This document shows positions 1-48,387 of a stretch of 48,387 nt of DNA, in pieces. The DNA is taken from NCBI GenBank assembly GCA_016204465.1, contig JACQKQ010000036.1, forward strand, positions 1 through 48,387, written 5' to 3'. The position numbers were made by a program, and so were the translations under genes. Below the pieces are notes generated by a model. That model worked only from the letters and a program-made list of their open reading frames with translations, was not told the origin of the DNA and made no database searches. Every line of letters starts with the position of its first letter. The stretch's first letter is position 1. This DNA is from Candidatus Levyibacteriota bacterium (lineage in GTDB: Bacteria; Patescibacteriota; Microgenomatia; Levybacterales; UBA12049).

Positions 1-1005
1 ACCATCGAACGGCTTTACGGTCAGCTCATTACCGAAAAACTCATCCCCTCACTAGCTCTCAAGCTTTCTGAAGAGAATCGTGTCTTGGCGACGCACTACT
101 CTACAAGCATAGAGGGCAATCCCCTGTCACCTTACGATGTTACGAATATTGTTTTAGGCGACAAGGTTGCAACAACCAAATCAGAACGAGAGGTAAAAAA
201 CTACTTTGCTGCACTCAATCACTTGTTTCTCTTGGTAAAAAAACGTGTTGCGATCACAACAGAGCTCACGGAAGAGCTTCATGCTATTTTGATGAAAGAT
301 ATCGAAAAAGACTCTGTCGGTAAATTTCGTAGTGGCCCTGTGTTTGTCGGACACAAGACAAAGGAAGAGGTTGTTGTCAAGCACAATCCGCCGTTTCACA
401 AAGCAGAAGACATTAAAAAGGCACTGACTGCACTTTATTTGTGGCTTACACAGCAAGACGAAGAGCTGCATCCATTGATTAAAGCAGGCATTTTCCACCA
501 TGAATTTGCCTTTATCCACCCATTTTTTGACGGTAATGGCAGACTCGCTCGTTTACTCACTGCGTATTACCTTTTGCTCAAGCAGTACGAAGTGACAAAG
601 TATTTTATTCTCGACGATTATTATGATATTGACCGACACCAGTATTCTGACATTCTGCATACCGCAGACGAGGGTGATAAAACACAGTGGCTTGAGTATT
701 TTTTAGAAGGTATTAGCTATTCGCTGCAGGCTGCTTTGGCAAGAATAAAAGAATTATCAGGTGCAAAACTCGATGAGGTTACCGGCGAAAAGCGTGTCCT
801 TGTCACAAATCGCGAGGAAGATGTGCTGCAGATAGTTTTAGAGAAAAAAGCAGTGAAGATGACTGATGTTTCGGAAACACTGTCCGTAACTCGCCAGCAA
901 GCCCACGCGCTCTTGGCATCGCTTGTGAAAAAAGGAATTTTGGAAAAGTTTGGCAAAACGAAAACGTCGTACTACAAGCTCGCTACAAACCAAGTTGCTT
1001 CTTAA
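1..1005 (+). CDS. Fic-domain protein with C-terminal winged-HTH; 5' end runs off the window
   Basis: Fic motif HPFFDGNGRLAR; STSIEGN; C-terminal LSVTRQQAHALLASLVKKG helix-turn-helix. Frame is open from base 1, upstream of the TTG at 85. Confidence 0.9.
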   Translation, partial: TIERLYGQLITEKLIPSLALKLSEENRVLATHYSTSIEGNPLSPYDVTNIVLGDKVATTKSEREVKNYFAALNHLFLLVKKRVAITTELTEELHAILMKDIEKDSVGKFRSGPVFVGHKTKEEVVVKHNPPFHKAEDIKKALTALYLWLTQQDEELHPLIKAGIFHHEFAFIHPFFDGNGRLARLLTAYYLLLKQYEVTKYFILDDYYDIDRHQYSDILHTADEGDKTQWLEYFLEGISYSLQAALARIKELSGAKLDEVTGEKRVLVTNREEDVLQIVLEKKAVKMTDVSETLSVTRQQAHALLASLVKKGILEKFGKTKTSYYKLATNQVAS

Positions 1006-1336
1006 GTGTCAACCAAAACTTTCCCCATTCCGATGCCTTCTGGTACTGTTTGAATTGCAGTTGCTCTTTTGCATCTTTTGATCCTTTCATCGGCGGGTCA
1101 ATCCAAGCCGAGAGAATAAGCCATTCCCGACGTTCGTTTTGTTTGGCAATCACAGTCACTCGTGACGGGCCAAATTGCTTGATATGACGGTATGAACCAT
1201 GTTCCCTGCCTTTTTCAACCTCATCTGGCTTTTTAAATGTATCAAGCGCTGTGTCTTGCGGCAAGCCGCGGTCTCGCATACGAATTATAGAATGCTTTGT
1301 CCAAATAAGATTGCCGTAGTATGGCGCATATTTCAT
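983..1336 (-). CDS. DUF4258-like small protein (putative RelE/BrnT-like RNase fold)
   Basis: N-terminal WTKHSIIRMRDRGL pattern and VTVIAK...WLILSAW beta-strands; resemblance recognised by eye. Confidence 0.6.
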   Translation of the reverse strand: MKYAPYYGNLIWTKHSIIRMRDRGLPQDTALDTFKKPDEVEKGREHGSYRHIKQFGPSRVTVIAKQNERREWLILSAWIDPPMKGSKDAKEQLQFKQYQKASEWGKFWLTLKKQLGL

Positions 1337-1382
1337 CTTGTTTGCTACGTTGTGATCAACTACAATAATACCTTATCACACA

Positions 1383-2354
1383 ATGCGAAACAAGCTGTCT
1401 CCTTTCATTTCAGCCTTGGCTGTATTCATTATCGCAGTTTCTTTGATGATGCTTTTTTTAGCGTCAAAACAGCAAGGGTCAAAAAAAATAATTTACTCTC
1501 CTGTTCCAGATTTCTTAAGCCTTTCACAAAACAAACAAGTCGTAACAACTGCAATATTTACTCCAAATATTCCTAAAGAAACGGTATTGGGAGTCTTTAC
1601 AGAGTCGCTTTCTTCTGAAGCAGCGCTCGTGTACGATTTGACTACGCAAAAAACATTTTACGCAAAAAATCAAACAAAACGTTTGCCGATGGCGTCGCTT
1701 ACAAAAGTGATGACAGCAATTATTGCCATAGAAAATCAAGTGCCAGACGATCGTTACCTTGTGACAAAAGAAGCGCTTGTTGGCGAAGACAGTATGGGAG
1801 CAACTCCAGGGGAAACGTATTCGCTTGAGGAACTATTATATGGGCTTATACTTGTTTCCGGAAACGATGCGGCAGAGGTACTGGCAATGCATTTCAAAGG
1901 AGGAAGAAATGCGTTTATCGCTGCTATGAACGAAAAAGCACGCTCGCTTGGAGCGCTTGATACGCATTTTACAAACCCAACAGGTTTACAGGGAGACGGT
2001 GATCAATACACAACGGCGCAAGATTTACTTGTTATAACTGCATATGCAATCGAACGCTTTCCCCTGTTTATAAAAGTAGTAAGTACATACGAGAAAACAC
2101 TTCCTTACAGTCAAAAACATAAAGCATTATTTCTTTACAATGAAACCAATTTACGCACTTCATATCCTGGCATTAAAGGGGTCAAAACTGGTTACACACC
2201 GGAGGCTGGATTGTGTTTGATTACCTATCTTGACTATAAAGGCCACAAAATTATTGGCGTGTTGCTTGGAAGCAGTAATCGGCGTGAAGAAATGCGTGAG
2301 CTTCTTAACTACAGCCTTCGCTCGCAAGGAGTTGAACCACCAATTGCAGATTAG
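1383..2354 (+). CDS. D-alanyl-D-alanine carboxypeptidase (peptidase S11)
   Basis: N-terminal TM anchor; SxxK (ASLTK), SxN (SGN) and KTG motifs. Confidence 0.92.
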   Translation: MRNKLSPFISALAVFIIAVSLMMLFLASKQQGSKKIIYSPVPDFLSLSQNKQVVTTAIFTPNIPKETVLGVFTESLSSEAALVYDLTTQKTFYAKNQTKRLPMASLTKVMTAIIAIENQVPDDRYLVTKEALVGEDSMGATPGETYSLEELLYGLILVSGNDAAEVLAMHFKGGRNAFIAAMNEKARSLGALDTHFTNPTGLQGDGDQYTTAQDLLVITAYAIERFPLFIKVVSTYEKTLPYSQKHKALFLYNETNLRTSYPGIKGVKTGYTPEAGLCLITYLDYKGHKIIGVLLGSSNRREEMRELLNYSLRSQGVEPPIAD

Positions 2355-2397
2355 TTGTTGCTCGCAGCCTCATTATGCGGTAAAATGTGTCTTGCAG

Positions 2398-2481
2398 GCT
2401 GCGGTGGTGGAATGGTAGACACAAGGGCCTTAAGAGCCCTCGTCCGTAAAGGACGTGAGAGTTCGACTCTCTCCCGCAGCA
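2398..2481 (+). tRNA. tRNA-Leu(TAA)
   Basis: Acceptor GCTGCGG/CCGCAGC, anticodon arm AGGGC-CTTAAGA-GCCCT, long variable arm, GTTCGA T-loop; CCA not encoded. Confidence 0.95.
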
Positions 2482-2504
2482 CATCTGCATAGCAGATTTC
2501 GGAT

Positions 2505-2637
2505 ATGTTCAGCGCATACATTCTTCGAAGTCTTAGATAATCCAAGAAAATCATACGTTGGACTAACGATTAAAAAGATTAATGAGCGATTAGCAGAACA
2601 TAACAATGGTTTCTCAAATTTTAAAATCAGGTTTTAG
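2505..2637 (+). pseudogene. Frameshifted, truncated GIY-YIG nuclease remnant
   Basis: ATG at 2505 reads MFSAYILRSL, then stops. Another frame continues NPRKSYVGLT..INERLAEHNNG, giving the YIL..Y.G.T...RL.EHN.G signature. Confidence 0.7.
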
Positions 2638-2703
2638 TTATAAATTAAGAAAGTTAATTTTAGATAATTACGAACAGATAAAATAAAATTCTGCTCTGCA
2701 GAA

Positions 2704-2777
2704 CGGGGAGTAGCTCAGCTGGCTAGAGCGCGCGGTTTGGGACCGTGAGGCCGGAGGTTCGAATCCTCTCTCCCCGA
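2704..2777 (+). tRNA. tRNA-Pro(TGG)
   Basis: Acceptor CGGGGAG/CTCCCCG, anticodon loop TTTGGGA, GGTTCGAATCC. Confidence 0.95.
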
Positions 2778-2905
2778 CTTTTCGCATTATGACATCCGAT
2801 TAGGTTACAAAACTCTACTTTGCCTTGAGTAAATAACCCCATTTTGTTATACTAACATGGCGTTTGCACTAAGGAAGTTTACACTGAGGAGCGAAGTGAC
2901 GAAGC

Positions 2906-2977
2906 GCGGGAGTAGTTCAGTGGTAGAATGTCTCCCTTCCAAGGAGAAGGTCGCCGGTCCGAATCCGGTCTCCCGCT
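2906..2977 (+). tRNA. tRNA-Gly(TCC)
   Basis: Acceptor GCGGGAG/CTCCCGC, anticodon arm TCTCC-CTTCCAA-GGAGA; T-loop reads TCCGAAT. Confidence 0.92.
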
Positions 2978-3168
2978 CACTTGACTTTTTCAAAAGAGTT
3001 AGCATCCTCAATAATTAAATCGCGCTTTGTAAAAGCGGTAGAAGCTTTTCAATAATTTCATCAATCACTTCTCTAGCAAAAACAGAGGATTTTGTAAATG
3101 ATCCTTTCAGTTTATATAATTAGCTAAAATATAGTAAAAAATCATCAGGAATATGTTAAACTCAACTT

Positions 3169-3960
3169 ATGTACTTAATTTTTGATATTGGCGGGACTCA
3201 GATCAAGTTGGCTATTTCTTCTGACGGACAGAATTTAGATAAAACTAAAACAATTCCTACTCAGCAAGACTTTTACCGGGCTATCACTGCTATAAAAGAA
3301 GCTGCTTTTGAATTATCAGGCGGGGAACCATTTCAAGCAGCTGCGGGCGGAGCCAGGGCCTTAGATCAAACTAAAACTAAACTTGTTAACCGATCACACT
3401 TCCCCCTTTGGGTTGATGCACCTTTAAAGGGAAAACTTGAAGAGGTGCTGAATACTCGGGTCAAACTGGAAAATGATGCGGCAGTGGCAGGATTAGGGGA
3501 AACTCTTTTCGGAGCAGGAAAGGACTATCGGATAGTAGTTTATATAACAGTCAGCACGGGTATAGGCGGAGCAAGAATCGTGGAGGGAAAAATTGACCAA
3601 AATACTCTGGGTTTTGAACCTGGGAATCAAATTATTACTTTAGAGGGAGACACTTTGGAATCTTTAATTTCCGGGGTATCCCTGGAAAGAAAATATGGTC
3701 AAAAGCCTCAGGAAATCAATGATCCTGGGATTTGGGATAGTGTCGCCAGAATTTTAGCCATAGGTTTAAACAATTCAGTTGTTCACTGGTCACCCGATAT
3801 AATTATCCTGGGAGGAAGTGTTTCAGAAAGCATACCCCTGGATAAGGTTAACGGTTACCTTAGGCAGTTTCTGACTGTCTTTCCCGAACCTCCCAAAATA
3901 ACCAAATCTGCTTTGGGCAGTCAAGCAGGGCTTTTAGGTGCCTTAAAACTTTTGACCTGA
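3169..3960 (+). CDS. ROK family sugar kinase (glucokinase-like)
   Basis: DIGGT, ENDA, TVSTGIGG and GFEPG motifs; lacks the CxCGxxGC zinc motif. Confidence 0.9.
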   Translation: MYLIFDIGGTQIKLAISSDGQNLDKTKTIPTQQDFYRAITAIKEAAFELSGGEPFQAAAGGARALDQTKTKLVNRSHFPLWVDAPLKGKLEEVLNTRVKLENDAAVAGLGETLFGAGKDYRIVVYITVSTGIGGARIVEGKIDQNTLGFEPGNQIITLEGDTLESLISGVSLERKYGQKPQEINDPGIWDSVARILAIGLNNSVVHWSPDIIILGGSVSESIPLDKVNGYLRQFLTVFPEPPKITKSALGSQAGLLGALKLLT

Positions 3961-4089: not shown

Positions 4090-4341
4090 ATGGATAAACC
4101 AATAGGCAAAGTCGCCCATTACTACGATAAAATAGGGGTCGCTGTAGTTGACATAACAACCGGCGCAATTAAGATTGGGGATTCGATCAAATTCAAATTA
4201 GGGGACGATGAGTTTTCGCAAGTAGTGGAGTCACTGCAAATGGAGCACAAATCCGTATCGTCTGTAAAAAAAGGCGACTCCTTTGGATTAAAGGTTAGCG
4301 AGCCAACAAAACGGGGAACGCTTGTTTATTTAGTTTCGTAG
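4090..4341 (+). CDS. Small EF-Tu domain-II-like beta-barrel protein (translation-elongation-factor-like)
   Basis: IGKVAHYYDKIGVAV...LQMEHKSV...KGDSFGLKV pattern; ATG at 4090 preferred over TTG at 4075. Confidence 0.7.
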   Translation: MDKPIGKVAHYYDKIGVAVVDITTGAIKIGDSIKFKLGDDEFSQVVESLQMEHKSVSSVKKGDSFGLKVSEPTKRGTLVYLVS

Positions 4342-4392
4342 CGTAATTTAGTATAATATAAGTAAGCTTGCGCTGATGAGCGAAGCGAAGAA

Positions 4393-4466
4393 GCGCCCAT
4401 AGCTCAATTGGATAGAGCAAGTCGGTTCTAACGATTAGGTTGGGGGTTCGAGTCCCTCTGGGCGCG
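4393..4466 (+). tRNA. tRNA-Arg(TCT)
   Basis: Acceptor GCGCCCA/TGGGCGC, anticodon arm AGTCG-GTTCTAA-CGATT (G at position 32), GGTTCGAGTCC. Confidence 0.9.
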
Positions 4467-4501
4467 CAGCGTAATAAATTACTTCGTAATTTAAACGCTG
4501 C
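4466..4501 (+). terminator. Long hairpin directly after tRNA-Arg
   Basis: GCAGCGT-AA-TAAATTAC-TTC-GTAATTTA-AACGCTGC inverted repeat; no clear U-tract. Confidence 0.45.
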
Positions 4502-4552
4502 TGAGACGTAAAAATCTTTGATTTTGTGCGTCTCGCCATTTACACTTTTGTT

Positions 4553-5221
4553 ATGATTCCGATTTCAGACTCAATTCGCGCGCATCGGTTTCCCCTACTT
4601 AATATTTCTCTTATTGCCGCCAACATTTTTGTTTTCTACCTACAATTTAGCGCAGTTAACCCTGATTTATTTATTCTCCAATACGCTCTCATTCCATCGC
4701 AGATAAACATTTCGGATTTTTCAACGTTCTATCCTTTTGTCACGGCGATGTTTCTGCATGGCGGTATTTTGCATATAGCATCTAACATGCTCTTTTTATG
4801 GGTTTTTGGCGACAATGTCGAGACCCACTTTGGGTGGCTCTTTTTCTTGCCTGTATATTTTATTTCAGGAATTGTCGGTAATGCCGTTCAGTATATGTTG
4901 AATCCTACCTCAACAATTCCCATGATTGGGGCGTCTGGCGCAGTTGCCGGCATGCTTGGCGCCTACTACGTACTCTTCCCCCATGCTCGAATAAAAACAT
5001 TGATACCGTTTTTTGGTTTTTTTTCCGTTATTGAAATTCCAGCCGGCTTTATGCTTGGGTATTGGTTTGTCTTGCAGATCCTATCCGGTGCTGTTTCGCT
5101 GCCAATGATGGATTCCCAAACCGGTGGTATTGCGTTTTTTGCGCACATTGGCGGATTTGCTGCAGGTGTCCTTTTTGCACAACTGCATCCAAGAGACAAA
5201 GTTCATTCGCTGTCATCTTGA
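4553..5221 (+). CDS. Rhomboid family intramembrane serine protease
   Basis: HIASNMLFLWVFG, GASG catalytic Ser, AHIGG catalytic His; multiple TM segments. Confidence 0.93.
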   Translation: MIPISDSIRAHRFPLLNISLIAANIFVFYLQFSAVNPDLFILQYALIPSQINISDFSTFYPFVTAMFLHGGILHIASNMLFLWVFGDNVETHFGWLFFLPVYFISGIVGNAVQYMLNPTSTIPMIGASGAVAGMLGAYYVLFPHARIKTLIPFFGFFSVIEIPAGFMLGYWFVLQILSGAVSLPMMDSQTGGIAFFAHIGGFAAGVLFAQLHPRDKVHSLSS

Positions 5222-17509: not shown

Positions 17510-17561
17510 TGCCTTTTTTTATATAAAATTAATTTTAGTTGGAGATTGTAGCTGTACTTTA

Positions 17562-17669
17562 TTATACATCTTTCAAACCAAACAAATAAGCAAATTCAGA
17601 GTTTAGACCTTCAGATAGGAATAAATTGATAAATTCTCGCAGTCTGTTTAAGATACTAAGCGGATTACA
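17562..17669 (-). repeat. Dispersed cassette-boundary repeat, copy A
   Basis: Reverse complement encodes CNPLSILNRLREFINLFLSEGLNSEFAYLFGLKDV*; 68/84 nt identical to copy D over the core (manual count). Confidence 0.9.
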
Positions 17670-34687: not shown

Positions 34688-34753
34688 AAGATGGTTTTTT
34701 TCAAACTCTTTGACAATTACCTTAAAAACCATGTATATTAGAATATAAACGTT

Positions 34754-36223
34754 ATGAACGGCTCAGTCTTTTTTAGCGCTCTTGCCAAGGTATTTTCTAA
34801 ATCCTCATCCTGGGTTATAACCATAACCGTTACCTTAAATGTGTTGCTTTTGTACTATCTTATTCTGGCGCAAAAAACCACCTGGGACGCTTTTTGGCAG
34901 TCTAATGCTACCTGGTATACTTTGTCTCAAGTAATTTTAAGCGTGATTAACGCTCTTATTGTAGGTGTATCTATAACGTTTTTAATTTATCTGCTGGACG
35001 AACAAAAACGAGCCCAAAAAGCAACCTTTTTAAATACCCTAGGCTCGTTCTTCTTCTCGGCTGTTGCTACCGGCTGCTCTGTTTGCAGCGCTTATCTTTT
35101 ACCTCTGCTGGGCATTGCTGCCTCACTAACCGCCTTCCCTTTTGGAGGGCTTGAAGTTAAGACTCTGGCAGCTCTGATTGGTTTTTATGCGCTTTGGCAG
35201 TTTGCTGCCGGTGTTGCAGGAGTTTGTAGGGTCTACAAAGAAAACGTAATCTCTTTTGAGAACAAAAATTTACAACTCAATTTAAACCGGGAAACCCTTC
35301 CCCAGCTTAAACCGCTTCTCCTTTTAGTTGCCTTTATTTTTACAATTTATGCTATCCCAAGGCTTCCTATAAAATATAAAGCAAAAACGCAAAGAGAAAT
35401 AGCAGTTGCAGCTTCTAATGGTACGCAAGCTGCCAAAGCAAACTCAGCCGAAACTTTTGCAAAGATCAATCCTGCTGATGGTTATGAAATCAATGCTACT
35501 TACGGAGAGATTGGTCCTAAAATGCTTGATATGGGAGTAATTGATTTTGATAAATTTAAGCAGGTTTATCAACAATCCGGGCAGCCTTTAACAGCAGAAC
35601 AGGAGGAGATTCTAACACGAGGTTCTGATAAAAAAATTAAAATTTCCCAGGAAAATTCATACTTTCTGTTAAATTTCTTCTGGGCTTTTGGACTGGGCAA
35701 CAAAACTAAAATTCTGACAGAAGGCGATATGGTCAAATACGGAGAGGGGCAGGTCGGCAATTTTGCCTCAACAGGAGGGTGGTCATTGGCTAAAGGAGAT
35801 GCGGTGGATTATTACTCTAAGAGAGCTTTAGTTCCATTATCGGTTGAGCAAGAAGACCTGGTAAATAAAGTTGCTTCCAATATTTACAGGCCTTGTTGCG
35901 GCAACTCCACAGCGTTTCCGGACTGCAATCATGGCATGGCTCTTTTAGGCATTTTGGAGCTGATGGCAGCAAAGGGAGCTACAGAGGATGAGATGTACAA
36001 CGCTGCCAAATATTTTAATGCCTTTTGGTTCCCAAGCAATTACTATGACATAGCCCTATATTTTAAAAACAAAGAAGGAAAGGATTACAAGGATGTGGAT
36101 GCGAGGTTAATATTAGGCAAAGATATATCTTCGGCTTTTGGGGCACAAGCTGTCAAAAAATGGTTGACGGAAAACGGCATTGTGGAGCCACCCCCAAAAC
36201 AAGGGGGAGGTTGCGGAGTATAA
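34754..36223 (+). CDS. Uncharacterised Cys-rich membrane protein
   Basis: N-terminal TM bundle with GCSVC; soluble domain with RPCCGNSTAFPDCNHGM; C-terminal GGGCGV. Confidence 0.8.
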   Translation: MNGSVFFSALAKVFSKSSSWVITITVTLNVLLLYYLILAQKTTWDAFWQSNATWYTLSQVILSVINALIVGVSITFLIYLLDEQKRAQKATFLNTLGSFFFSAVATGCSVCSAYLLPLLGIAASLTAFPFGGLEVKTLAALIGFYALWQFAAGVAGVCRVYKENVISFENKNLQLNLNRETLPQLKPLLLLVAFIFTIYAIPRLPIKYKAKTQREIAVAASNGTQAAKANSAETFAKINPADGYEINATYGEIGPKMLDMGVIDFDKFKQVYQQSGQPLTAEQEEILTRGSDKKIKISQENSYFLLNFFWAFGLGNKTKILTEGDMVKYGEGQVGNFASTGGWSLAKGDAVDYYSKRALVPLSVEQEDLVNKVASNIYRPCCGNSTAFPDCNHGMALLGILELMAAKGATEDEMYNAAKYFNAFWFPSNYYDIALYFKNKEGKDYKDVDARLILGKDISSAFGAQAVKKWLTENGIVEPPPKQGGGCGV

Positions 36224-36231
36224 TAAGTCAA

Positions 36232-36266
36232 TCTTAATTATTTCTTAATCTCCTTTTCTTTAGAAT
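36232..36266 (+). promoter_or_regulatory. Direct-repeat regulator site plus -10, upstream of ccdA
   Basis: TCTTAAT-N4-TCTTAAT, then TAGAAT at 36261. Confidence 0.6.
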
Positions 36267-36277
36267 ATATCTTCAGT

Positions 36278-37159
36278 ATGGAACTTTTGATCAGCGCTTC
36301 GTTTATTGCAGCTTATTTTGCCGGTATAGCAGCGCTTTTTGCTCCATGTTGTATTTCGGTTTTACTCCCTACCTATTTTGCTTCGATTTTTAAGCAAAAA
36401 ACTTTAATCTTTTTGATGACTTTTATATACTTCTTAGGGCTTTTGACCATCTTTTTACCAATAGGTCTTGGTGTAACATTTTTAACCCAACTATTTTCAC
36501 AGTACCATAACCAGATATTTCTTATCGGGTCTATCTTTTTGATCTTTTTGGGAACAGTTTTAATTTTAGGAAAACAATTTTCGCTTCCTTTTAAGGTTTA
36601 TCCCAAGCTTAAAAACTATGATGTTTTATCAGTTTATGTCTTGGGGATATTTTCAGCAATTGCCACAACTTGTTGTGCCCCGGTTTTGGCAGGAGTTTTG
36701 GCTATCTCTGCTATTCCCGGATCTTTAGCTTTAGGAGGGATATATACCTTAGCTTATGTTTTAGGCATTGTCACACCGCTTTTTGTCATTGCCACCTGTC
36801 TTGACAAATCAAAAATCACCCAAAAGTTTTTAACCTTCAAAAAAACCTTAACCTACAATTTTTTTGGCCAAAAAATTTTGGTGACTGTTTCAAATTTAAT
36901 ATCCGGGCTAATGTTTCTAATTTTAGGCAGTTATATCTTCTACCTGGCGCAAACTAACCAAATCGCTGTCCATGACTCTTTGCAAGTTGCCATAAATATT
37001 TACTTAACAAACTTTATTAAATCCATAAGCCTAGTAACAAACCTTATCCCAGAATTCGTCTGGGCATTACTATTTGTGGGTATTTTTCTGGTAGCATTAA
37101 AAATAGCCGCTAGCCAGTTTTTGAGTCTTTTAAAGAAAGTGGGAATAAATGAGAAATAA
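36278..37159 (+). CDS. ccdA: CcdA/DsbD-type thiol-disulfide membrane transporter
   Basis: FAPCCISVLLP and TTCCAPVLAG motifs; multiple TM. Confidence 0.85.
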   Translation: MELLISASFIAAYFAGIAALFAPCCISVLLPTYFASIFKQKTLIFLMTFIYFLGLLTIFLPIGLGVTFLTQLFSQYHNQIFLIGSIFLIFLGTVLILGKQFSLPFKVYPKLKNYDVLSVYVLGIFSAIATTCCAPVLAGVLAISAIPGSLALGGIYTLAYVLGIVTPLFVIATCLDKSKITQKFLTFKKTLTYNFFGQKILVTVSNLISGLMFLILGSYIFYLAQTNQIAVHDSLQVAINIYLTNFIKSISLVTNLIPEFVWALLFVGIFLVALKIAASQFLSLLKKVGINEK

Positions 37160-37811
37160 AGAGTGGCTTTTTATTACACTAGCTACATTTGCTACAGTCG
37201 GGGTTATATTTGTGGTAACTTTTTTCTTAGCAAAAGACACTCCTAAACCAAACACATCCACATCGGATGTAAAACAGCAATCAGTTTTGTCAAACGATGA
37301 TATGTCTTCACATCATGCTCCTGCATCTCCTTCGGACTCTACAGCATTTAACAGCTTAGTGGGCAAAACAGCCCCTGATTTTACGCTAGAAGATTACACT
37401 GGTAAGGCAGTTACTTTAAGCAGTCTTAAGGGAAAAAAGGTATTGCTATTTTTTAATGAAGGGATTATGTGCTATCCATCCTGCTGGAACCAAATTGCGG
37501 CTTTCGGAAGTGCAACTGAATTTGATAATGAGACAATAATTTTAAATATAGTAGTTGACCCAAAAAAAGACTGGCAGCAGGCCATAAGCAAGATGCCGCA
37601 GCTTGCTAAAGCCACTGTTTTATTTGATAGTAATGCTACCGTTTCCAACCAATACGGAGTATTGAACCTACCATCATCCATGCACAGAGGCCAATACCCA
37701 GGCCATAGTTATGTCATTATAGACAAAGAAGGAATAATCAGATTCACCATGGATGATGAAAAGATGGCGGTCAGAAACAAAGAGCTAGCTGAAGAGATGA
37801 ATAAATTGTAA
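37149..37811 (+). CDS. Membrane-anchored thioredoxin-fold protein (redoxin; Sco-like CxxxC/His)
   Basis: APDFTL..VTLSSLKGKKVLLFF, CYPSC, GHSYVIIDKEG. Confidence 0.8.
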   Translation: MRNKEWLFITLATFATVGVIFVVTFFLAKDTPKPNTSTSDVKQQSVLSNDDMSSHHAPASPSDSTAFNSLVGKTAPDFTLEDYTGKAVTLSSLKGKKVLLFFNEGIMCYPSCWNQIAAFGSATEFDNETIILNIVVDPKKDWQQAISKMPQLAKATVLFDSNATVSNQYGVLNLPSSMHRGQYPGHSYVIIDKEGIIRFTMDDEKMAVRNKELAEEMNKL

Positions 37812-37869
37812 TGCAATTCTAGCAACCCTGCACCAGACGTGGGGGGTCGAAAAATGAAAGGAGGTAAAA

Positions 37870-38052
37870 GTGGAAGATCCGGTTTGTAAAATGAAGATTA
37901 GGAAAGAGACTGCGCTTTCTCAAAATTATAAGGGGAAGACATATTATTTTTGTTCCGAGAATTGTAAAAACAGTTTTAATGCCAAACCCGAGCAATATTT
38001 ACAAAAAGGTAAAGCCAGTGTTCATGGCTGCAGCTGCTGCCATAAATCTTAA
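37870..38052 (+). CDS. YHS-domain protein
   Basis: DPVCKM, KTYYFCSENCK; AGGAGG RBS; C-terminal HGCSCCH. Confidence 0.9.
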   Translation: MEDPVCKMKIRKETALSQNYKGKTYYFCSENCKNSFNAKPEQYLQKGKASVHGCSCCHKS

Positions 38053-38076
38053 TGAAGATGGTGTATACTTCAAGTC

Positions 38077-38751
38077 ATGAGAGTGATAATAATAGAGGAC
38101 GAGCAGCGGCTTTCCAATACAGTCAAAAATGGTCTTTCTGAAGAAGGTTTTGCCGTTGACCAGGCTTTTGATGGTAAGGAAGGACAATATTTAGCACAAT
38201 CAGAAACCTATGACCTGATTATCCTTGACCTGATGCTGCCAAAAGTTGACGGGGTTACAGTCTGCAAAAATCTGCGTGCCAAAAATATTAAAACCCCGAT
38301 TATCATGCTGACAGCCAAATCAAGGTTGGAAGAGAAAGTTGAAGGTTTGGATGCAGGGGCTGATGATTACTTAACAAAACCCTTTGCCTTTGAGGAGCTA
38401 CGCTCAAGAATCCAGGCACTCCTTCGGAGAAGCCACAACCAAGCTGAAAATGTGTTAAATGCAGCTGATTTAACTGTTAATCCTATTAAACACACCGTTC
38501 AAAGATCCGGTAAAAAGATTATCTTAACCCCAAAAGAATTTTCCATTTTAGAATACCTTTTAAGGCATAAAGATGAGCTTGTCACCAGGACACAAATAAT
38601 AGAACACGCTTGGGATTACAATTTTGACAACATGTCCAATGTGGTGGATGTTTTTATTAATACTTTGCGTAAAAAGGTCGATGGCGGTTCTAAAACTAAA
38701 CTAATACACACAATCCACGGTGTTGGGTATAAGCTCGGGGTTGAAGGATAA
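38077..38751 (+). CDS. OmpR-family response regulator (CusR/CopR-like)
   Basis: IEDE, ILDLMLP, LTA, GADDYLTKPF, wHTH with TIHGVGY. Confidence 0.95.
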   Translation: MRVIIIEDEQRLSNTVKNGLSEEGFAVDQAFDGKEGQYLAQSETYDLIILDLMLPKVDGVTVCKNLRAKNIKTPIIMLTAKSRLEEKVEGLDAGADDYLTKPFAFEELRSRIQALLRRSHNQAENVLNAADLTVNPIKHTVQRSGKKIILTPKEFSILEYLLRHKDELVTRTQIIEHAWDYNFDNMSNVVDVFINTLRKKVDGGSKTKLIHTIHGVGYKLGVEG

Positions 38752-38767
38752 TAATCAAAAAAAGTTA

Positions 38768-39769
38768 ATGGGAAATTTGTTTAAAAGTATCAAAGCAAAG
38801 TTATTTTTCTGGTTTTTTACAAGCTTAATCTCCATTGCGGCTTATTTTTACCTGGCCATCCATATTTTTTCTTTGCCTTTCGGAAATCTTATCTTTTTAC
38901 TGCTTCTTTTAATACTTGCACTAGATGGTTTTTATATCATCTACAAAATTACCCGCAACCTCACCCAGCTTTCGGATAAGATGAAGACAATCAGCAGTAA
39001 AAACTTAAACGCACGAGTTGAAAATATTGATAGTGATGATGAGATTGGAAACTTAGCAAAAACATTTAACGGGCTCTTGGATAGGATCCAGCAGTCCTTT
39101 AAGAGGGAACAGCAGTTTATAGGTGATGTTGCCCATGAACTAAAGACACCCCTTGCCACACTGCAAACCAGCATAGAGATTGCCCTTAAAAAGAAGCGCA
39201 GCAGTCAGGAATACAAAGAAGTGCTCAAGGAAAGTTTAATTGACGTAAGTAAACTCTCCTCCACCCTAAAGAATGTATTGGATTTGGCTTGGTCTGAAGC
39301 GGAGTTTACCAAAAATGCAATGCAGAAGTTTAATCTGTCCCAAACCTTGGAAGAACTAAGAGAGATTGCAGAAAAGTTGGGTGCTTACAAAAATATTCAA
39401 CTTGACTCAAGCATTGATCCTGGTATAGAAATTTACGGGGACAGGGGAAAAATATCCCAGGTTTTATTAAACCTTTTGGATAATGCGGTTAAATATACAA
39501 AACCGGATGGAAAAATTTCGATCTCTCTTCGTGCAAAAGGCACAGCGGCTGAGGTTGAGATTAAAGATACCGGTTTGGGCATAGATCCCAGGGATTTAGA
39601 GCATATTTTTGACCGCTTTTACAGGGGTTCAAAGACCTCCAAAACCTTTGGCTCAGGGTTAGGATTGGCAATTGCCCAGGCTATTATTAAAGCCCACAGA
39701 GGAGCAATTAAGGTTAAAAGCAGAGTTAACCAGGGAACAACCTTCAAGATCATTTTACCCCTTAATTAA
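38768..39769 (+). CDS. Sensor histidine kinase (2 TM, HAMP, HisKA, HATPase)
   Basis: DEIGNLA HAMP, VAHELKTP H-box, NLLDNAVKY, DTGLGI, GSGLGLAI. Confidence 0.95.
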   Translation: MGNLFKSIKAKLFFWFFTSLISIAAYFYLAIHIFSLPFGNLIFLLLLLILALDGFYIIYKITRNLTQLSDKMKTISSKNLNARVENIDSDDEIGNLAKTFNGLLDRIQQSFKREQQFIGDVAHELKTPLATLQTSIEIALKKKRSSQEYKEVLKESLIDVSKLSSTLKNVLDLAWSEAEFTKNAMQKFNLSQTLEELREIAEKLGAYKNIQLDSSIDPGIEIYGDRGKISQVLLNLLDNAVKYTKPDGKISISLRAKGTAAEVEIKDTGLGIDPRDLEHIFDRFYRGSKTSKTFGSGLGLAIAQAIIKAHRGAIKVKSRVNQGTTFKIILPLN

Positions 39770-39774
39770 AGAAA

Positions 39775-39809
39775 TCTTAATCTTATCTTAATCCTTTTTT
39801 AAGTATCTT
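39775..39809 (+). promoter_or_regulatory. Direct-repeat regulator site plus -10, upstream of the DUF2933-like gene
   Basis: TCTTAAT-N4-TCTTAAT, then TATCTT at 39804. Confidence 0.55.
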
Positions 39810-39831
39810 CCATATATAATCTTTTAAGAAG

Positions 39832-39996
39832 GTGAAAATTTTTGCAGTAGTTTTTTGTTTAGCTTTGGTAGCATTGGTTTTTGTTGCAGTCAGAATTTTT
39901 AATCTCTCTTTGGGGACAGTTCTTTTATGGGGAGTGTTTTTAGCATGCCCTTTATTACATCTTTGGATGATGAAAGACGGCGGAAACAAACATTAA
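39832..39996 (+). CDS. DUF2933-like small membrane protein (54 aa, absent from the ORF track)
   Basis: Manual translation MKIFAVVFCLALVALVFVAVRIFNLSLGTVLLWGVFLACPLLHLWMMKDGGNKH*; the CPLxH motif is typical of DUF2933. Confidence 0.8.
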   Translation: MKIFAVVFCLALVALVFVAVRIFNLSLGTVLLWGVFLACPLLHLWMMKDGGNKH

Positions 39997-40007
39997 GCTT
40001 ACAATAT

Positions 40008-40042
40008 TCTTCATACTTTCTTAATCTTTAATGTTGTATTAT
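40008..40042 (+). promoter_or_regulatory. Direct-repeat regulator site plus -10, upstream of csoR-copA
   Basis: TCTTCAT-N4-TCTTAAT, then TATTAT at 40037. Confidence 0.55.
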
Positions 40043-40043
40043 A

Positions 40044-40058
40044 TCCCCTATAGGGGGA
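40044..40058. promoter_or_regulatory. CsoR-type operator
   Basis: CCCCTATAGGGG perfect palindrome (C-tract/G-tract) between the -10 and the csoR start. Confidence 0.7.
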
Positions 40059-40064
40059 CTTGAT

Positions 40065-40337
40065 ATGTATAAACCGAAAGATACTCATGAACACATAGTA
40101 CATAGGCTTAAAATCAGCCAGGGACATCTTGCAAAGGTGGTTAAAATGGTGAACAATAAAAGTTACTGTATAGATATTATTCACCAATCAAAAGCAGTAC
40201 AAAACGCTTTAAAAGAGGTTGACAGCTTAATTTTGGATAACCATTTAAGAACTTGTGTTGGTGAATATTTTAAAAGCGGAAAGCAGGAAAAAGCTATTTC
40301 AGAGTTGATGAACGTATTTGAAAAAGGAGCAAAGTAA
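40065..40337 (+). CDS. csoR: CsoR-family copper-sensing repressor
   Basis: RLKISQGHL, YCIDIIHQ..AV, HLRTCV (Cys-His-Cys ligands). Confidence 0.93.
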   Translation: MYKPKDTHEHIVHRLKISQGHLAKVVKMVNNKSYCIDIIHQSKAVQNALKEVDSLILDNHLRTCVGEYFKSGKQEKAISELMNVFEKGAK

Positions 40338-40339
40338 AT

Positions 40340-42568
40340 ATGGAACATAACATTTGTTACACCTGCCCGATGCACCCTAATGTAAAGCAGGAAAAGATAG
40401 GCAGTTGCTCTAAATGTGGCATGGAATTAGTTAAAAGTGCAAAGTTAAAAGTGCAAAGTGAAAAAGGACATGGAAAGCACGCAGGGCATGTTATGAAACC
40501 CACTGCTGAAATGTCCTTTTGGGAAAAGCTGAAGATGAGCATGGGTATGACGATGGGTATGGAGCATGGAGGCTTAGCGGGAAGGGAGATGGCCAGACTG
40601 ATGGAAGAGGATATCCGTAACAAATTCCTCTTTGCCTTAATTTTATCAATTCCAATTATTGCCTACTCTCCTTTCGGAATTGAATTTTTAAAACTTAAAC
40701 TGCCATCCCCAATTCCTATTCCCTGGCTTCTTTTCGTTTTAACTACCCCTGTCTTTTTCTATTCAGGCTGGATCTTTTTATACTCCACTTACAAAGCATT
40801 ACAGGCAAAAACTTTAAACATGGCTGTGCTTATTGCTGTTGGAATTACAGCAGCTTACGCCTTCAGTGTGATTTTAAGTCTTTTAGGAAGCAGTGATTCA
40901 TATTATGAAGCAGCAGCGCTTCTTATAACATTTGTCCTCTTTGGCCATTGGATGGAGATGAAATCCCGTCGTGGAACTACGGATGCACTTCAAGCTCTAT
41001 TTGCGCTTGTCCCACCTCAAGCCAGAGTTTTAAGAAATGGTAAAGAAGAATTGATCCCAACTACAGAGGTAAAACTGGGAGGTATTTTAGTCTTAAAACC
41101 CGGTGATAAAGTACCGGTTGATGGGCAAATTTTAGAAGGTGAAACAGCCATTGATGAGTCTTTAGTCACTGGTGAGTCTATTCCTGTGGCTAAAAAAACT
41201 GGAGACAGTGTAATTGGCGGTTCTATCAATACTACGGGATCTGTCCAGTTTAAGGCTACTAAAGTAGGTGAAGATACGGCTTTGGCTCAAATTGTCAAAA
41301 TGGTTGAGATTGCCCAAAATTCCAAAGCTCCGGGACAAAAGCTGGCCGACAGGTTTGCAAAATACCTGGTTATTGTGGCTGTTGGAGGAGGGCTTTTAAC
41401 ATTTGCTGTCTGGTTTTTTATTATTGGCCAGCCTCTTTTATTTGCTTTAACTTTTGCGATTTCAACCGTAGTTATTGCCTGTCCTGATGCTTTAGGCTTG
41501 GCGACTCCTACAGCTGTGGCTGTTGGTACAGGACTGGGGGCAAAGCACAATATTTTAATCAAAGATGCTCCAACTTTAGAGCAGGTTTCCAAAATCCAGG
41601 CTGTAGTTTTGGATAAAACAGGCACTTTAACAGAGGGCAAACCTGCCATTTCAAAAATAGTTGCTAAAAATGGCTTTTCTGAGTTTGATGTTTTAAAGCT
41701 GGTTGGAGCTGCAGAAGCCAAATCTTCCCATCCTCTGTCTAAAGCAATCCTTGATGAGCTGGAAAATAGAAAATTAGAATTACCTAAAAAGGTTGAACAG
41801 TTTAAGAACCTGGCAGGATTGGGTGTGCAGGCAATAGTTGAGGGTAGAAAGGTTTTGGTAGGGACAGTCAAACTAATGCAGCAAAATAATGTTGATCTTA
41901 ATGAGCTGGAAGCTGATGTTAATTCATTAGTTGCAGACGGCAACACCATTATGGTTTTAGCAGTTGACGGAAAAGCTGCAGGGGTAGTTGGCGCTGCAGA
42001 CCCTATAAAGCCTACTGCCAATAAGGCTGTCGAAAGACTTAATGAACTAGGAATAGAGGTTGCGATGATTACCGGTGACAACCAGAAAACTGCGGAGGCT
42101 GTGGCCAAAAAGATAGGTATAAATCGGGTGTTTGCAGATGTTATGCCAGAGCAAAAAGCAAATTATGTCAAAAAATTACAAGAAGAAGGAAAATTTACGG
42201 CCATGGTGGGAGACGGGGTCAATGATGCCCCTGCTCTGGCGCAGGCCGATATTGGAATTGCCATTGGGGCAGGAACAGATGTGGCTATCGAAACTGCTAA
42301 TGTGGTTCTGATGAAATCAGACCCGGCTGATGTTTTAAGGGCTATCAAGCTTTCTAAGGCTACTGTCAAGAAAATGAAGCAGAACCTGTTTTGGGCTTCC
42401 ATTTATAACTTATTGGCAATTCCGGTTGCCGCCGGAGTATTATATCCTAACTTCGGCATCTCGCTGCGTCCGGAGGTATCAGCACTTTTAATGAGCCTTT
42501 CATCAATTATCGTCGCAACTAATGCAGTACTTTTAAACAGAACAGAAAAAGACCTTATATCTATTTAA
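40340..42568 (+). CDS. copA: Copper-translocating P1B-type ATPase
   Basis: YTCPMHP..CSKCGM N-terminal domain, His/Met-rich linker, TGES, CPDALGLATP, DKTGT, HP, GDGVND, YN, MSLSS. Confidence 0.95.
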   Translation: MEHNICYTCPMHPNVKQEKIGSCSKCGMELVKSAKLKVQSEKGHGKHAGHVMKPTAEMSFWEKLKMSMGMTMGMEHGGLAGREMARLMEEDIRNKFLFALILSIPIIAYSPFGIEFLKLKLPSPIPIPWLLFVLTTPVFFYSGWIFLYSTYKALQAKTLNMAVLIAVGITAAYAFSVILSLLGSSDSYYEAAALLITFVLFGHWMEMKSRRGTTDALQALFALVPPQARVLRNGKEELIPTTEVKLGGILVLKPGDKVPVDGQILEGETAIDESLVTGESIPVAKKTGDSVIGGSINTTGSVQFKATKVGEDTALAQIVKMVEIAQNSKAPGQKLADRFAKYLVIVAVGGGLLTFAVWFFIIGQPLLFALTFAISTVVIACPDALGLATPTAVAVGTGLGAKHNILIKDAPTLEQVSKIQAVVLDKTGTLTEGKPAISKIVAKNGFSEFDVLKLVGAAEAKSSHPLSKAILDELENRKLELPKKVEQFKNLAGLGVQAIVEGRKVLVGTVKLMQQNNVDLNELEADVNSLVADGNTIMVLAVDGKAAGVVGAADPIKPTANKAVERLNELGIEVAMITGDNQKTAEAVAKKIGINRVFADVMPEQKANYVKKLQEEGKFTAMVGDGVNDAPALAQADIGIAIGAGTDVAIETANVVLMKSDPADVLRAIKLSKATVKKMKQNLFWASIYNLLAIPVAAGVLYPNFGISLRPEVSALLMSLSSIIVATNAVLLNRTEKDLISI

Positions 42569-42586
42569 AGAAAGAGGATTAAACAG

Positions 42587-43024
42587 ATGTTTAAAAAAGC
42601 TTCATATGAGGTCTTAAAAGGGATTATTGCCGCAATAATACTGTTAGCAGTGTATTTTACTGCTTTGATTTTGATTTCTGGATGGGTGTTTGCCCAAAGT
42701 CAGTTTAGGCAGTTTTGGTATTATGTGGTGACTTTGGCAATTGGTTTTGGTATTCAGGTAGGCTTGTATAGTTACTTAAGAAGTGCTGTTTCCCAAAAAG
42801 TTTCTCCCAGGGTTGTTGCTACAACAGGCGCTACCTCAACTGCAGCCATGATATCCTGCTGTGCTCACTACCTGGTAAATATATTACCCATTTTGGGAAT
42901 CACAGGGATTATCACTTTCATCAGTCAATATCAGGTGGAGCTTTTTTGGGTTGGTTTAGCTTTTAACTTTGCAGGTATTGTTTACATGACAAATAGGGTA
43001 TATAAGTTTAAAAAAAGAACATAA
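42587..43024 (+). CDS. Uncharacterised membrane protein with SCCAH motif
   Basis: About 4 TM; AMISCCAHYL; directly after copA. Confidence 0.8.
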   Translation: MFKKASYEVLKGIIAAIILLAVYFTALILISGWVFAQSQFRQFWYYVVTLAIGFGIQVGLYSYLRSAVSQKVSPRVVATTGATSTAAMISCCAHYLVNILPILGITGIITFISQYQVELFWVGLAFNFAGIVYMTNRVYKFKKRT

Positions 43025-43026
43025 AT

Positions 43027-43497
43027 ATGAAAATACAAATAAATCTCATTGTTTTTGGTTTGGTAATACTATTTATTTCAGTAGCTATATTATATTTTAC
43101 ACAAGGAAAAAGTAGTGAAAAGGCGCTACAGCAAGTTCCTCAAGTACAAACTGCAAATCAAAATGAATTAGAGACCCAGACATCTCAAGTTGAAAATATA
43201 ACGATCAAGGTAACACCACAGGATATTTCCAAGTCTTCCAGTGAGTGGAAATTTGAAGTTACCCTGGACACTCACTCCGGGTCCTTGGATCAGGATCTGC
43301 AAAAAACTTCAGTTCTTTTGGATAATAAGGGAAATCAATATAAACCTACTGCATGGGAAGGCAGCCCCGCTGGTGGACATCATCGAGAAGGGGTATTAAA
43401 GTTTAGACCAATCAGCTCAACTACCATTGAGTTAAAGATTATTGATTTTGTGGGTTCTCAATCCCAAATTTTCAAATGGACACTTAAAACTGACTAA
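43027..43497 (+). CDS. Uncharacterised exported His-motif protein
   Basis: N-terminal TM; LDTHSGSL and GGHHREG motifs. Confidence 0.8.
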   Translation: MKIQINLIVFGLVILFISVAILYFTQGKSSEKALQQVPQVQTANQNELETQTSQVENITIKVTPQDISKSSSEWKFEVTLDTHSGSLDQDLQKTSVLLDNKGNQYKPTAWEGSPAGGHHREGVLKFRPISSTTIELKIIDFVGSQSQIFKWTLKTD

Positions 43498-43574
43498 GTG
43501 AATTTTTCAAATTATTCCTGTCTGACGGTCTAAACTCCGAATTTGCATATTTATTTGGCTTAAAAAATGTCCAA
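43491..43574 (+). repeat. Dispersed cassette-boundary repeat, copy B
   Basis: Encodes LSEFFKLFLSDGLNSEFAYLFGLKNV; the stop of the last copper-cluster gene lies inside it. Confidence 0.88.
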
Positions 43575-43608
43575 GTAAGTACATCAGGAATAAAGATCAT
43601 TTGCGGAA

Positions 43609-46443: not shown

Positions 46444-46551
46444 TGTGAGCCCAACGATACATTGCACAGACTTCGAGAATTCTTCAAATTATTCCTTTCT
46501 AATGGCCTAAACTCTGAATTTGCTTATCAGTTTGGCCTAAAAGATGTATAG
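46444..46551 (+). repeat. Dispersed cassette-boundary repeat, copy C
   Basis: Encodes CEPNDTLHRLREFFKLFLSNGLNSEFAYQFGLKDV*; 71/84 nt identical to copy D (manual count). Confidence 0.9.
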
Positions 46552-46627
46552 CAAAGTACAATAGCTTTCTTTAACTAATTTTAACTATAAGGCATTGACA
46601 AATGGTCTTATTTTTGGTTAAATACAC

Positions 46628-48158: not shown

Positions 48159-48266
48159 GGTTATCCGGACGATACTCTCCACAGACTGCGAGAATTCGTT
48201 GAATTATTCCTATCTGATAGCCTAAACTCTGAATTTGCTTATACATTTGGCCTAAAAAATGCATAA
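48159..48266 (+). repeat. Dispersed cassette-boundary repeat, copy D
   Basis: Encodes GYPDDTLHRLREFVELFLSDSLNSEFAYTFGLKNA*. Confidence 0.9.
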
Positions 48267-48387
48267 TAAAGTGCATTAACCTCTTTTTATTTTTACAAAT
48301 TTGTTATGATGATTACATTGATTGACTATACTATTTTGGGGTATGGCAAAATATATGGCAATATGGTAATATATTTATGAATATATC

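Follow-up and report, generated by a model that had tools for sequence, protein, structure and literature searches.

The stretch of DNA considered here, called the window, comprises 48,387 nucleotides (nt) of contig JACQKQ010000036.1 from a Candidatus Levyibacteriota bacterium. Between positions 34754 and 43497 it holds a copper-defence gene cluster of this ultra-small, uncultured member of the Patescibacteria. Eleven co-oriented open reading frames (ORFs), numbered g1 to g11 below, fill this interval on the + strand, with intergenic gaps of -32 to 68 nt (Table 1). An earlier note, made from the sequence alone, had counted ten co-oriented genes and one uncalled small gene, and the count holds. 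Whichever gene was meant by the uncalled one, YHS or DUF2933, it is real, as both are supported by Pfam.

The genome that holds the cluster measures 881 kb and is 88.8% complete. The nearest relatives of the genes studied are found in metagenome-assembled genomes of Daviesbacteria, Levybacteria and Roizmanbacteria (Microgenomates, Patescibacteria). In profile searches, the genes flanking the cluster were identified as a YkuD L,D-transpeptidase and a UPF0182 protein.

Table 1. Features of the copper-defence cluster and copies of the dispersed repeat. Positions refer to the window unless another contig is named.
Feature	Position	Strand	Description
g1 promoter	34710..34739	+	near-consensus sigma-70-type, TTGACA-18-TATATT (11/12), 14 nt before the g1 start
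g1	34754..36223	+	489 amino acids (aa); domain of four transmembrane (TM) helices (4-TM), fifth TM helix, extracytoplasmic "PCC domain" (about residues 225-489)
RR box 1	36232..36249	+	TCTTAATTATTTCTTAAT; direct repeats 11 bp apart; ends 11 nt before the TAGAAT -10 box upstream of ccdA
g2 (ccdA)	36278..37159	+	CcdA/DsbD_TM-like membrane protein, 293 aa
g3	37149..37811	+	membrane-anchored thioredoxin-fold redoxin, 220 aa
g4	37870..38052	+	YHS, 60 aa; 67.9 bits (cut-off 30.3); HGCSCCH tail; AAAGGAGGT upstream
g5	38077..38751	+	OmpR/PhoB-type response regulator (RR); Response_reg and Trans_reg_C
g6	38720..39769	+	histidine kinase (HK), 349 aa; 2 TM, HAMP, HisKA, HATPase_c
RR box 2	39775..39792	+	TCTTAATCTTATCTTAAT; followed, in phase (11 bp), by additional degenerate half-sites as far as the TATAAT -10 box of g7
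g7	39832..39996	+	DUF2933 small membrane protein, 54 aa; 22 bits (cut-off 21)
RR box 3	40008..40025	+	TCTTCATACTTTCTTAAT; ends 11 nt before the TATTAT -10 box of csoR
CsoR operator candidate	40045..40056	.	CCCCTATAGGGG; perfect G/C-tract palindrome of the CsoR-operator type
g8 (csoR)	40065..40337	+	CsoR, 90 aa; Trns_repr_metal (PF02583), 75.9 bits (cut-off 22.8)
g9 (copA)	40340..42568	+	P1B copper ATPase, 742 aa; TIGR01511, 589 bits (cut-off 397)
g10	42587..43024	+	4-TM protein, 145 aa; CCxH motif in TM3
g11	43027..43497	+	N-terminally anchored Ig-like beta-sandwich, 156 aa
Repeat copy	17553-17647	-	BLAST
Repeat copy	43489-43583	+	BLAST
Repeat copy	46466-46560	+	BLAST
Repeat copy	48181-48275	+	BLAST
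Repeat copy	444-532 of contig C19		BLAST

Pfam and NCBIfam profiles bear out the known parts named in the earlier note, which were CcdA, YHS, a two-component system, CsoR and CopA. The Cys/His motifs that it listed in the cluster proteins were all located in the genes to which it had assigned them, and they are invariant or nearly so across homologues. A strong Shine-Dalgarno sequence reported ahead of the YHS gene, AAAGGAGGT, is likewise present before the start codon. Three of the cluster proteins, g1, g10 and g11, match no Pfam or NCBIfam model. They represent undescribed families, and one of them, g1, has no known fold.

The copper sensor and the pump are the best defined members of the cluster. 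CsoR carries the Cu(I) fingerprint C35-H60-C64, which by its spacing is equivalent to Cys36, His61 and Cys65 in M. tuberculosis numbering. The closest solved relatives of the g9 ATPase are CopA proteins (3rfu, 539 bits). Its N-terminus consists of an HMBD domain (PF19335, 41 bits; CxxC..CxxC) and a His/Met-rich stretch, and Pfam finds no HMA domain in it.

At about codon 386, the transmembrane metal site of the pump reads VVIACPDALGLATP, with CPD where the canonical site is CPC or CPH. The motifs YN(x)4P (WASIYNLLAIP) and M(x)2SS (LMSLSS) are kept in the last two TM helices. In the literature, CPD has been described only as a "novel" variant of three rhizobial pumps (PMC5552934). Among the ATPases near g1 homologues, 17 have CPC, 13 CPD and 9 CPH, and the CPD pumps are those placed after RR, HK and DUF2933 genes. 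The small DUF2933 protein g7 has the sequence CPLLHLWMM...GGNKH, of which CP(L/M)xHxxMM is kept in all 14 DUF2933 neighbours (14/14).

These features bear on whether the cluster responds to copper at all. It could instead serve against another thiophilic stress, such as Ag, Hg, Cd, Zn, reactive sulfur or chlorine species, or general thiol oxidation, with copper being incidental. Members of the CsoR family also sense persulfide, Ni and formaldehyde, and g8 shows a weak match to FrmR. The CPD variant of the pump points in the same direction, as does the occurrence of YHS, DUF2933 and DUF305 in mixed heavy-metal islands elsewhere. Against this stand the Cu(I) fingerprint at positions 35, 60 and 64 of CsoR, and an ATPase with YN(x)4P and MxxSS intact, whose best scores are with the Cu subfamily model and with CopA structures. 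In addition, the neighbours of related genes in other genomes include cupredoxins, CopG/DUF411 proteins, HMA chaperones and Met-rich proteins. A stress other than copper is thus very unlikely to be the one that the cluster serves.

The largest of the undescribed proteins is g1. The positive-inside pattern indicates that its PCC domain lies outside the cell. In an alignment of 67 sequences, the invariant residues are C381, C382, D390, C391, N392, H393, G394, M395, a FASTGGW loop and C487. The first of these make up the motifs P380-C381-C382 and D390-C-N-H-G-M395, and C487 sits in a flexible C-terminal tail, GGGCGV (family pattern GGxCGV). Within the 4-TM domain, TM3 bears GC108SVC111. More than 4300 homologues exist, every one of them named "hypothetical", and the C-terminal domain forms 633 clusters at 50% identity among 1.84 billion representatives.

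Two forms of the protein can be distinguished. The long form, seen here, has the 4-TM domain with GCxVC in TM3, the fifth TM helix and the PCC domain, and the short form has a single anchor and the PCC domain. A stand-alone 4-TM protein of about 180 aa (GVGCASCG...LP.KGEE), found in loci L027 and L029 and in three others, resembles the N-terminal domain of the long form. This resemblance suggests that the long form arose through gene fusion.

Short-form proteins with 40-55% identity are found in Anaerolineae/Chloroflexota (loci L064-L080). Therefore, the family is not limited to Patescibacteria. Some of these Chloroflexota proteins have an N-terminal zinc-ribbon and adjoin genes for YHS proteins, cupredoxins and P1B ATPases. 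In the recorded gene call (P0001, 460 aa) the first 29 codons of g1 are missing; the alignment with homologues begins at the ATG at 34754, 14 nt past the near-consensus -10 box.

A structural model of g1 was made with AlphaFold2 from the family alignment. The mean predicted local distance difference test (pLDDT) score is 86, and most of the C-terminal domain exceeds 90. Values fall below 50 at the Cys-bearing TM3 and at the C-terminal tail. A Foldseek search of the model against the PDB returned no relative (best E 1.6), and nothing was found by a PDB sequence search with g1 or by a profile search with its C-terminal domain. As modelled, then, the C-terminal domain is confidently folded, and no counterpart of it was found in the PDB. 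Pfam scans of all 67 g1-family sequences gave nothing relevant, and in ten relatives of the PCC domain with unusual length they revealed no informative fusions. The BNR and AAA_14 matches in the long relatives are probably gene-call joins.

The last two genes of the cluster, g10 and g11, form a pair. In 25 homologues of g10, TM3 is invariant as GxTSTxAMxSC91C92xH94YL..LPxLG, and in the window the motif reads S90-C-C-A-H94. There are more than 2800 homologues, with identities of 65-80%. Pfam scans of 25 relatives found nothing relevant, and a PDB sequence search with g10 was empty. Homology between g10 and the 4-TM domain of g1 is suggestive only, to judge from a BLASTP match of E 0.007 over 21 residues and an hhalign probability of 13%.

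The second member of the pair, g11, has three invariant histidines (H83, H118 and H119) and three invariant tryptophans (W74, W110 and W151) in 62 homologues. The histidines lie in the motifs T82-H-S and G116-G-H-H119. Its model is that of an Ig-like beta-sandwich, predicted with confidence (pLDDT 84). Neither a sequence nor a profile search of the PDB with g11 gave a match, and a profile scan gave a sub-threshold match to DUF5643 only. Foldseek returned generic Ig-like matches, among them DUF4426 and YjhA, all at E 1.6e-3 or worse. The similarity of its fold to the Helicobacter pylori copper protein CrdA is weak (E 5e-3, template modelling score 0.42-0.57). MerT, CopD, CopC, PCuAC and CusF were not matched, by Pfam/NCBIfam profile or by fold, by the N-terminal domain of g1 (g1N), by g10 or by g11.

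Evidence that g10 and g11 belong together was provided by loci fetched independently through each of the two genes. In these loci the pair overlaps by 4 nt and lies beside HMBD-type ATPases, CsoR, YHS, DUF5676, DsbD_TM with Redoxin, and DUF2933. One of them has exactly the order csoR-copA-g10-g11.

Two further genes, g2 and g3, encode a putative thiol pair. The CcdA-like protein g2 matches the Pfam model DsbD_TM marginally (28.8 bits, cut-off 27.1). Where canonical CcdA has a single Cys at each of two places, g2 has vicinal pairs, APC24C25IS and TTC132C133AP. Such pairs are kept in about 40 of 45 neighbouring CcdA-like homologues. The ccdA start lies 11 nt past its -10 box and has no Shine-Dalgarno sequence.

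The redoxin g3 matches the Pfam models AhpC-TSA (68.6 bits) and Redoxin (55.7 bits). Its active site, C108-YPS-C112, is a CxxxC and not a CxxC motif, and it is accompanied by a conserved PGH186. The pattern CYP[AS]C is kept in 7 of 8 homologues. The best matches in the PDB are the Streptococcus pneumoniae proteins Etrx1/2 (4hqz and 2yp6, E 2e-9), peroxiredoxins and ResA, and the sequence is nearer to Etrx/TlpA/peroxiredoxin proteins than to Sco. In the pneumococcus, Etrx1/2 are surface thioredoxins and work with CcdA (PMC3914529).

The combination of a CxxxC motif with a conserved distal His is a Sco-like metal-binding pattern. Assignment of g3 to Sco1/SenC was rejected at the family level, the SCO1-SenC profile scoring 17.9 bits (cut-off 22.8) and no Sco protein appearing among 26 PDB matches. 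A role for the CcdA/g3 pair in maturation of cytochrome c or CuA was also rejected, because COX1, COX2 and a cytochrome c assembly protein of the CcsA/CcmC/CcmF type were all searched for and not found in the 88.8%-complete genome. The pair is thus present without a cytochrome or CuA client. Thioredoxin and TrxB are encoded on contig C50, and therefore a source of reductant exists.

The regulation of the cluster can be read in part from its promoters. Three boxes with the consensus TCTTAAT-N4-TCTTAAT, a direct repeat, precede ccdA, DUF2933 and csoR. With one mismatch or fewer, three occur in the window against 0.06 expected, and there is no other match in the 881-kb genome. Sixteen related loci contain 29 matches, all on the gene strand, which precede ccdA/DUF1573, g10, DUF2933, the redoxin and the regulator gene itself.

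The protein that binds these boxes is likely g5, because they have the shape expected of OmpR/PhoB sites, with direct repeats about 11 bp apart that overlap the -35 region. Presence of the box is associated with presence of an orthologue of this regulator (odds ratio 13, p 6e-5). Orthologues of g5 (62-71% identity) adjoin g1 homologues in 27-29 loci.

The kinase g6 has about 5 residues between its two TM helices and virtually no outer loop. Most orthologues beside g1 homologues are about 465 aa long and have an outer domain of about 150 aa. A tie between the sensor-less kinase and the long (5-TM) form of g1 was considered and rejected, as short kinases occur with both forms.

At the csoR promoter, CCCCTATAGGGG begins 3 nt past the -10 box and ends 8 nt before the ATG. 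Its type was assigned from known CsoR operators (PMC3902906). Because this promoter has both an RR box and a CsoR-type palindrome, the pump operon appears to be under dual control, predicted to be cytoplasmic via CsoR and from the envelope or membrane via the two-component system. At the g1 promoter neither an RR box nor a Shine-Dalgarno sequence was found. The g1 transcript looks leaderless, because the start codon lies 14 nt past the -10 box with no Shine-Dalgarno sequence.

The gene neighbourhood was examined in 80 loci with g1 relatives from Patescibacteria and Anaerolineae/Chloroflexota, by clustering all ORFs within 7 kb. The most frequent neighbours are CcdA-like proteins (43 loci, at a median of 809 nt upstream on the same strand), DUF1573 CxC proteins (37) and P1B ATPases (36). 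The orthologous regulator is found in 27 loci, the kinase in 24, Cupredoxin_1 in 21, CsoR in 19 and DUF5676 in 15. Fusions of HMA, DsbD_2 and cupredoxin domains occur in 14 loci, DUF2933 in 14, DUF3105 in 13 and a Met-rich protein in 12. Less common are g11 (10), DsbA-like proteins (10), g10 (9), an HMA chaperone (8), a CYPxC redoxin (7) and DUF411/CopG (5).

Of 201 genomes of the class, g1 is found in 67 and CopA in 150. CopA is present in 66 of the 67 g1-positive genomes vs 84 of the 134 g1-negative ones (odds ratio 39, Fisher p 1e-9). Gene order varies: in the close relatives L002 and L003, for instance, it is g1-g10-g11-ccdA-redoxin. Linkage that is kept while order is shuffled is a classical sign of functional coupling. 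Thus, the undescribed genes do co-occur with copA and csoR in many other genomes, and this ground for refutation, named in the earlier note, falls away. Because the module recurs widely in Patescibacteria, the window is one good, regulation-rich example of it and not a unique find. In a search of the literature on DUF2933, DUF1573, DUF5676 or CcdA with copper in Patescibacteria, no description of such a module was found.

Taken together, the cluster is probably a chromosomal copper-stress regulon which couples efflux to an extracytoplasmic thiol relay, similar in function to the Scs system and built from new families. In this Microgenomates-type cell it would consist of four transcription units and respond through two sensors. 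CsoR would sit on CCCCTATAGGGG at its own promoter, and binding of Cu(I) would free transcription of csoR-copA-g10-g11. The CPD-type CopA, with its HMBD N-terminus, would then export cytoplasmic Cu(I). By analogy with CopZ and the HMA domain, YHS is the likely cytoplasmic metal donor to the HMBD.

The second sensor would be the two-component system. Copper or thiol stress at the membrane would activate it, the sensor-less kinase g6 phosphorylating g5. By binding its boxes at -35, g5 would activate DUF2933, csoR-copA-g10-g11 and, with autoregulation, ccdA-redoxin-YHS-RR-HK. Cytoplasmic thioredoxin may then supply reducing equivalents, which the CcdA-like protein would pass on to the CYPSC redoxin anchored at the outer face. 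This pair would keep surface cysteines reduced under copper stress, chiefly the four invariant cysteines of the g1 PCC domain. Once reduced, the latter could bind and buffer Cu(I), or they could be repaired after copper-catalysed oxidation. The fixed pair behind copA, with the membrane CCxH of g10 and the His-triad beta-sandwich of g11, would most likely receive or buffer exported metal outside the cell. Binding of copper by the DUF2933 protein g7 is also presumed.

The earlier note had proposed that export is coupled to extracytoplasmic reduction. This is supported by the shared promoter boxes and by a lack in the genome of the textbook clients of CcdA, ResA and Sco (COX1, COX2 and cytochrome c assembly). 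Chaperoning, which the earlier note had also proposed, is a presumed role, as is the binding of copper by the undescribed proteins. Precedents for copper-induced reduction of envelope thiols are provided by the Scs system (PMC10907172) and by the dsbDEG genes of P. aeruginosa, which are induced by a copper-sensing two-component system (bioRxiv 10.1101/2020.08.17.255257).

Several observations weigh against such a regulon. The CcdA-like protein barely exceeds the Pfam cut-off, and its vicinal Cys pairs are foreign to classical electron-carrying CcdA, so that it may not be a simple electron conduit. The CxxxC of g3, together with its conserved His, fits metal binding and not the CxxC of a reductase. 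The redoxin is found in just 7 of the 80 related loci, a DUF1573 CxC protein taking its place, which makes the partners of the relay uncertain. Furthermore, in the window g1 is served by a separate promoter that lacks an RR box, and the metal site of the pump is a natural variant of the canonical one, so that its specificity for copper is putative.

The vicinal cysteines also suggest a different possibility, namely a thiolate relay that moves Cu(I) itself in the manner of MerT/MerP. The CcdA-like protein and the two 4-TM proteins with cysteines, g1N (GCxVC) and g10 (SCCxH), could pass metal across or along the membrane and exchange it with the PCC domain and the g11 His-sandwich, for export independent of the P-type pump or for supply of the few cuproproteins of the cell. 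The replacement of single cysteines by CC pairs in most CcdA-like neighbours would fit this, as would the invariant intramembrane Cys motifs of g1N and g10. Both 4-TM units also have an outer metal-ligand domain as partner, which is fused to the unit in g1 and encoded next to it in the case of g10-g11. The HMA-DsbD_2-cupredoxin fusions of 14 related loci and the cupredoxin-like gene of the genome are further points in its favour.

However, no member of the DsbD superfamily is known to transport metal. Neither g1N nor g10 has a Pfam match to MerT, MerC or CopD, and the homology between the two is weak. In addition, g3, with its thioredoxin fold, shares 11 nt with ccdA, an arrangement seen in classical electron relays. 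A relay of the metal itself is therefore considered unlikely, though it is the chief rival of the thiol relay.

A joint version of these ideas goes further and is quite unlikely to be right as a whole. According to it, the PCC domain would be the first of a new fold of extracytoplasmic Cu(I)-thiolate proteins or enzymes, marked by a CC-x8-C-x-H-x-M site that is rigid, a FASTGGW loop that is mobile and a C-terminal Cys that swings within GGxCGV. A CcdA subfamily would serve this domain, with vicinal cysteines that carry Cu(I) and not electrons alone, and would form with g1N and g10 a Mer-like thiolate relay for copper. The relay would work without the P-type pump and be confined to Patescibacteria and some Chloroflexota.

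The proposed regulon, with its thiol relay, can be compared with several known systems. The closest in function is Scs (ScsABCD of Salmonella, Proteus and Caulobacter, and CueP; PMC10907172, PMC8900818, PMC5524982). Like Scs, the cluster would be a copper-induced envelope thiol system with a genetic tie to copper homeostasis, in which reducing power passes through a DsbD-superfamily membrane protein to Cys proteins, anchored or periplasmic, whose task is to bind Cu(I) or to repair copper-oxidised thiols. In contrast to ScsB with its periplasmic domains, the protein found here is a bare CcdA-like core with vicinal CC pairs. The window has no DsbA/DsbC-like ScsC, and its redoxin is of the AhpC/TSA type. 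For the PCC domain, as the presumed client, no known fold could be matched, the predicted regulators are CsoR and an OmpR-type system, and the host is a monoderm-like cell of the candidate phyla radiation with no classical periplasm. Because no defining Scs protein is present, the cluster is regarded as an analogue of Scs and not as a member.

The CcdA-Etrx1/Etrx2-MsrAB2 pathway of Streptococcus pneumoniae (PMC3914529) also joins CcdA to a membrane-anchored extracellular thioredoxin-fold protein. It differs in that the protein here has CYPSC and a conserved His in place of CxxC, lacks an MsrAB client and lies in a copper-gene context. With csoR-copZ-copA of Bacillus and the cso operon of Mycobacterium (csoR-rv0968-ctpV-rv0970), the cluster shares a C-H-C CsoR, a G/C-tract palindrome and a P1B ATPase with small membrane proteins. 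CsoR regulates its own operon in those bacteria and is predicted to do so here. Here, YHS and HMBD replace the HMA chaperone and HMA domain, CPD replaces CPC, the same promoter has a second, predicted two-component input, and g10-g11 come from undescribed families.

Two-component control of envelope disulfide-reducing genes in response to copper, predicted here, is also found for dsbDEG of P. aeruginosa, and the CopRS/CusRS regulons belong to the same comparison. The kinase of the cluster differs in having no outer sensor domain, and both the box sequence and the target genes are different. Finally, MerT/MerP and CopC/CopD offer a formal likeness in architecture, a small polytopic protein with intramembrane Cys being combined with an outer metal-binding domain. 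No sequence or profile similarity between them and the cluster proteins was detected, and the fold match of g11 to CrdA is weak.

How bacteria defend themselves against copper has been mapped well for model species. The same does not hold for the candidate phyla radiation, a group with minimal redox metabolism that accounts for a large part of bacterial diversity. With CcdA and a redoxin present and no cytochrome or CuA client, the cluster singles out the part that envelope thiol reduction plays in copper stress, and does so in a very simple cell. Three conserved, unstudied families also emerge from it, and their members g1, g10 and g11 are likely copper handlers of the outer face. The promoter boxes and the CsoR operator provide regulatory predictions that can be tested directly.

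The earlier note had called the system mobile and placed its end inside a copy of a repeat. The repeat, about 95 nt long, is intergenic and dispersed, with five copies in the genome that share 78-84% mutual identity. It has no match in Rfam, and its consensus folds weakly (-5.5 kcal/mol). The placement is marginal: BLAST similarity does start at 43489, but the overlap consists of the last three codons of g11 only.

A mobile, recently acquired copper-resistance island bounded by this repeat would account for the copy at the 3' end of g11. It would also agree with the patchy presence of g1 in the class, with its relatives in Chloroflexota and with the shuffled order of the module between genomes. 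The 5' edge, however, has no copy of the repeat; the nearest one lies 17 kb upstream, in inverted orientation. An ORF for an integrase, transposase or relaxase was found neither in the cluster nor beside it. Its G+C content (0.36-0.42) is like that of the rest of the window, and its flanks are the YkuD and UPF0182 genes. An island of this kind is highly improbable and was rejected for want of mobility genes, a shift in composition and a flanking repeat pair; mobility, as claimed in the earlier note, is not upheld.

Elsewhere in the same genome, contig C29 carries a second metal/thiol cluster on the minus strand (about 3889..755). Its genes encode CsoR (109 aa), a DUF1573 protein (164 aa, SCACT), a CcdA-like protein (269 aa, APCCIT/SACCAPV), a DUF5676 protein (87 aa) and a histidine kinase (388 aa). 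A PCC-domain gene is not adjacent to it.

The earlier note had also seen no respiratory cuproenzymes in the window. For COX1 and COX2 this extends to the genome; it has to be qualified by one small cupredoxin-like protein on another contig. This protein is encoded on the + strand of contig C23 (about 3530-3968), has the pattern H...C-x4-H-x4-M and matches Cu-oxidase_3 at 23 bits. It is the sole candidate cuproprotein seen in the genome. Directly after its gene, on the same strand (about 3977-4627), lies an ORF for a polytopic, ferric-reductase-like protein of 216 aa.

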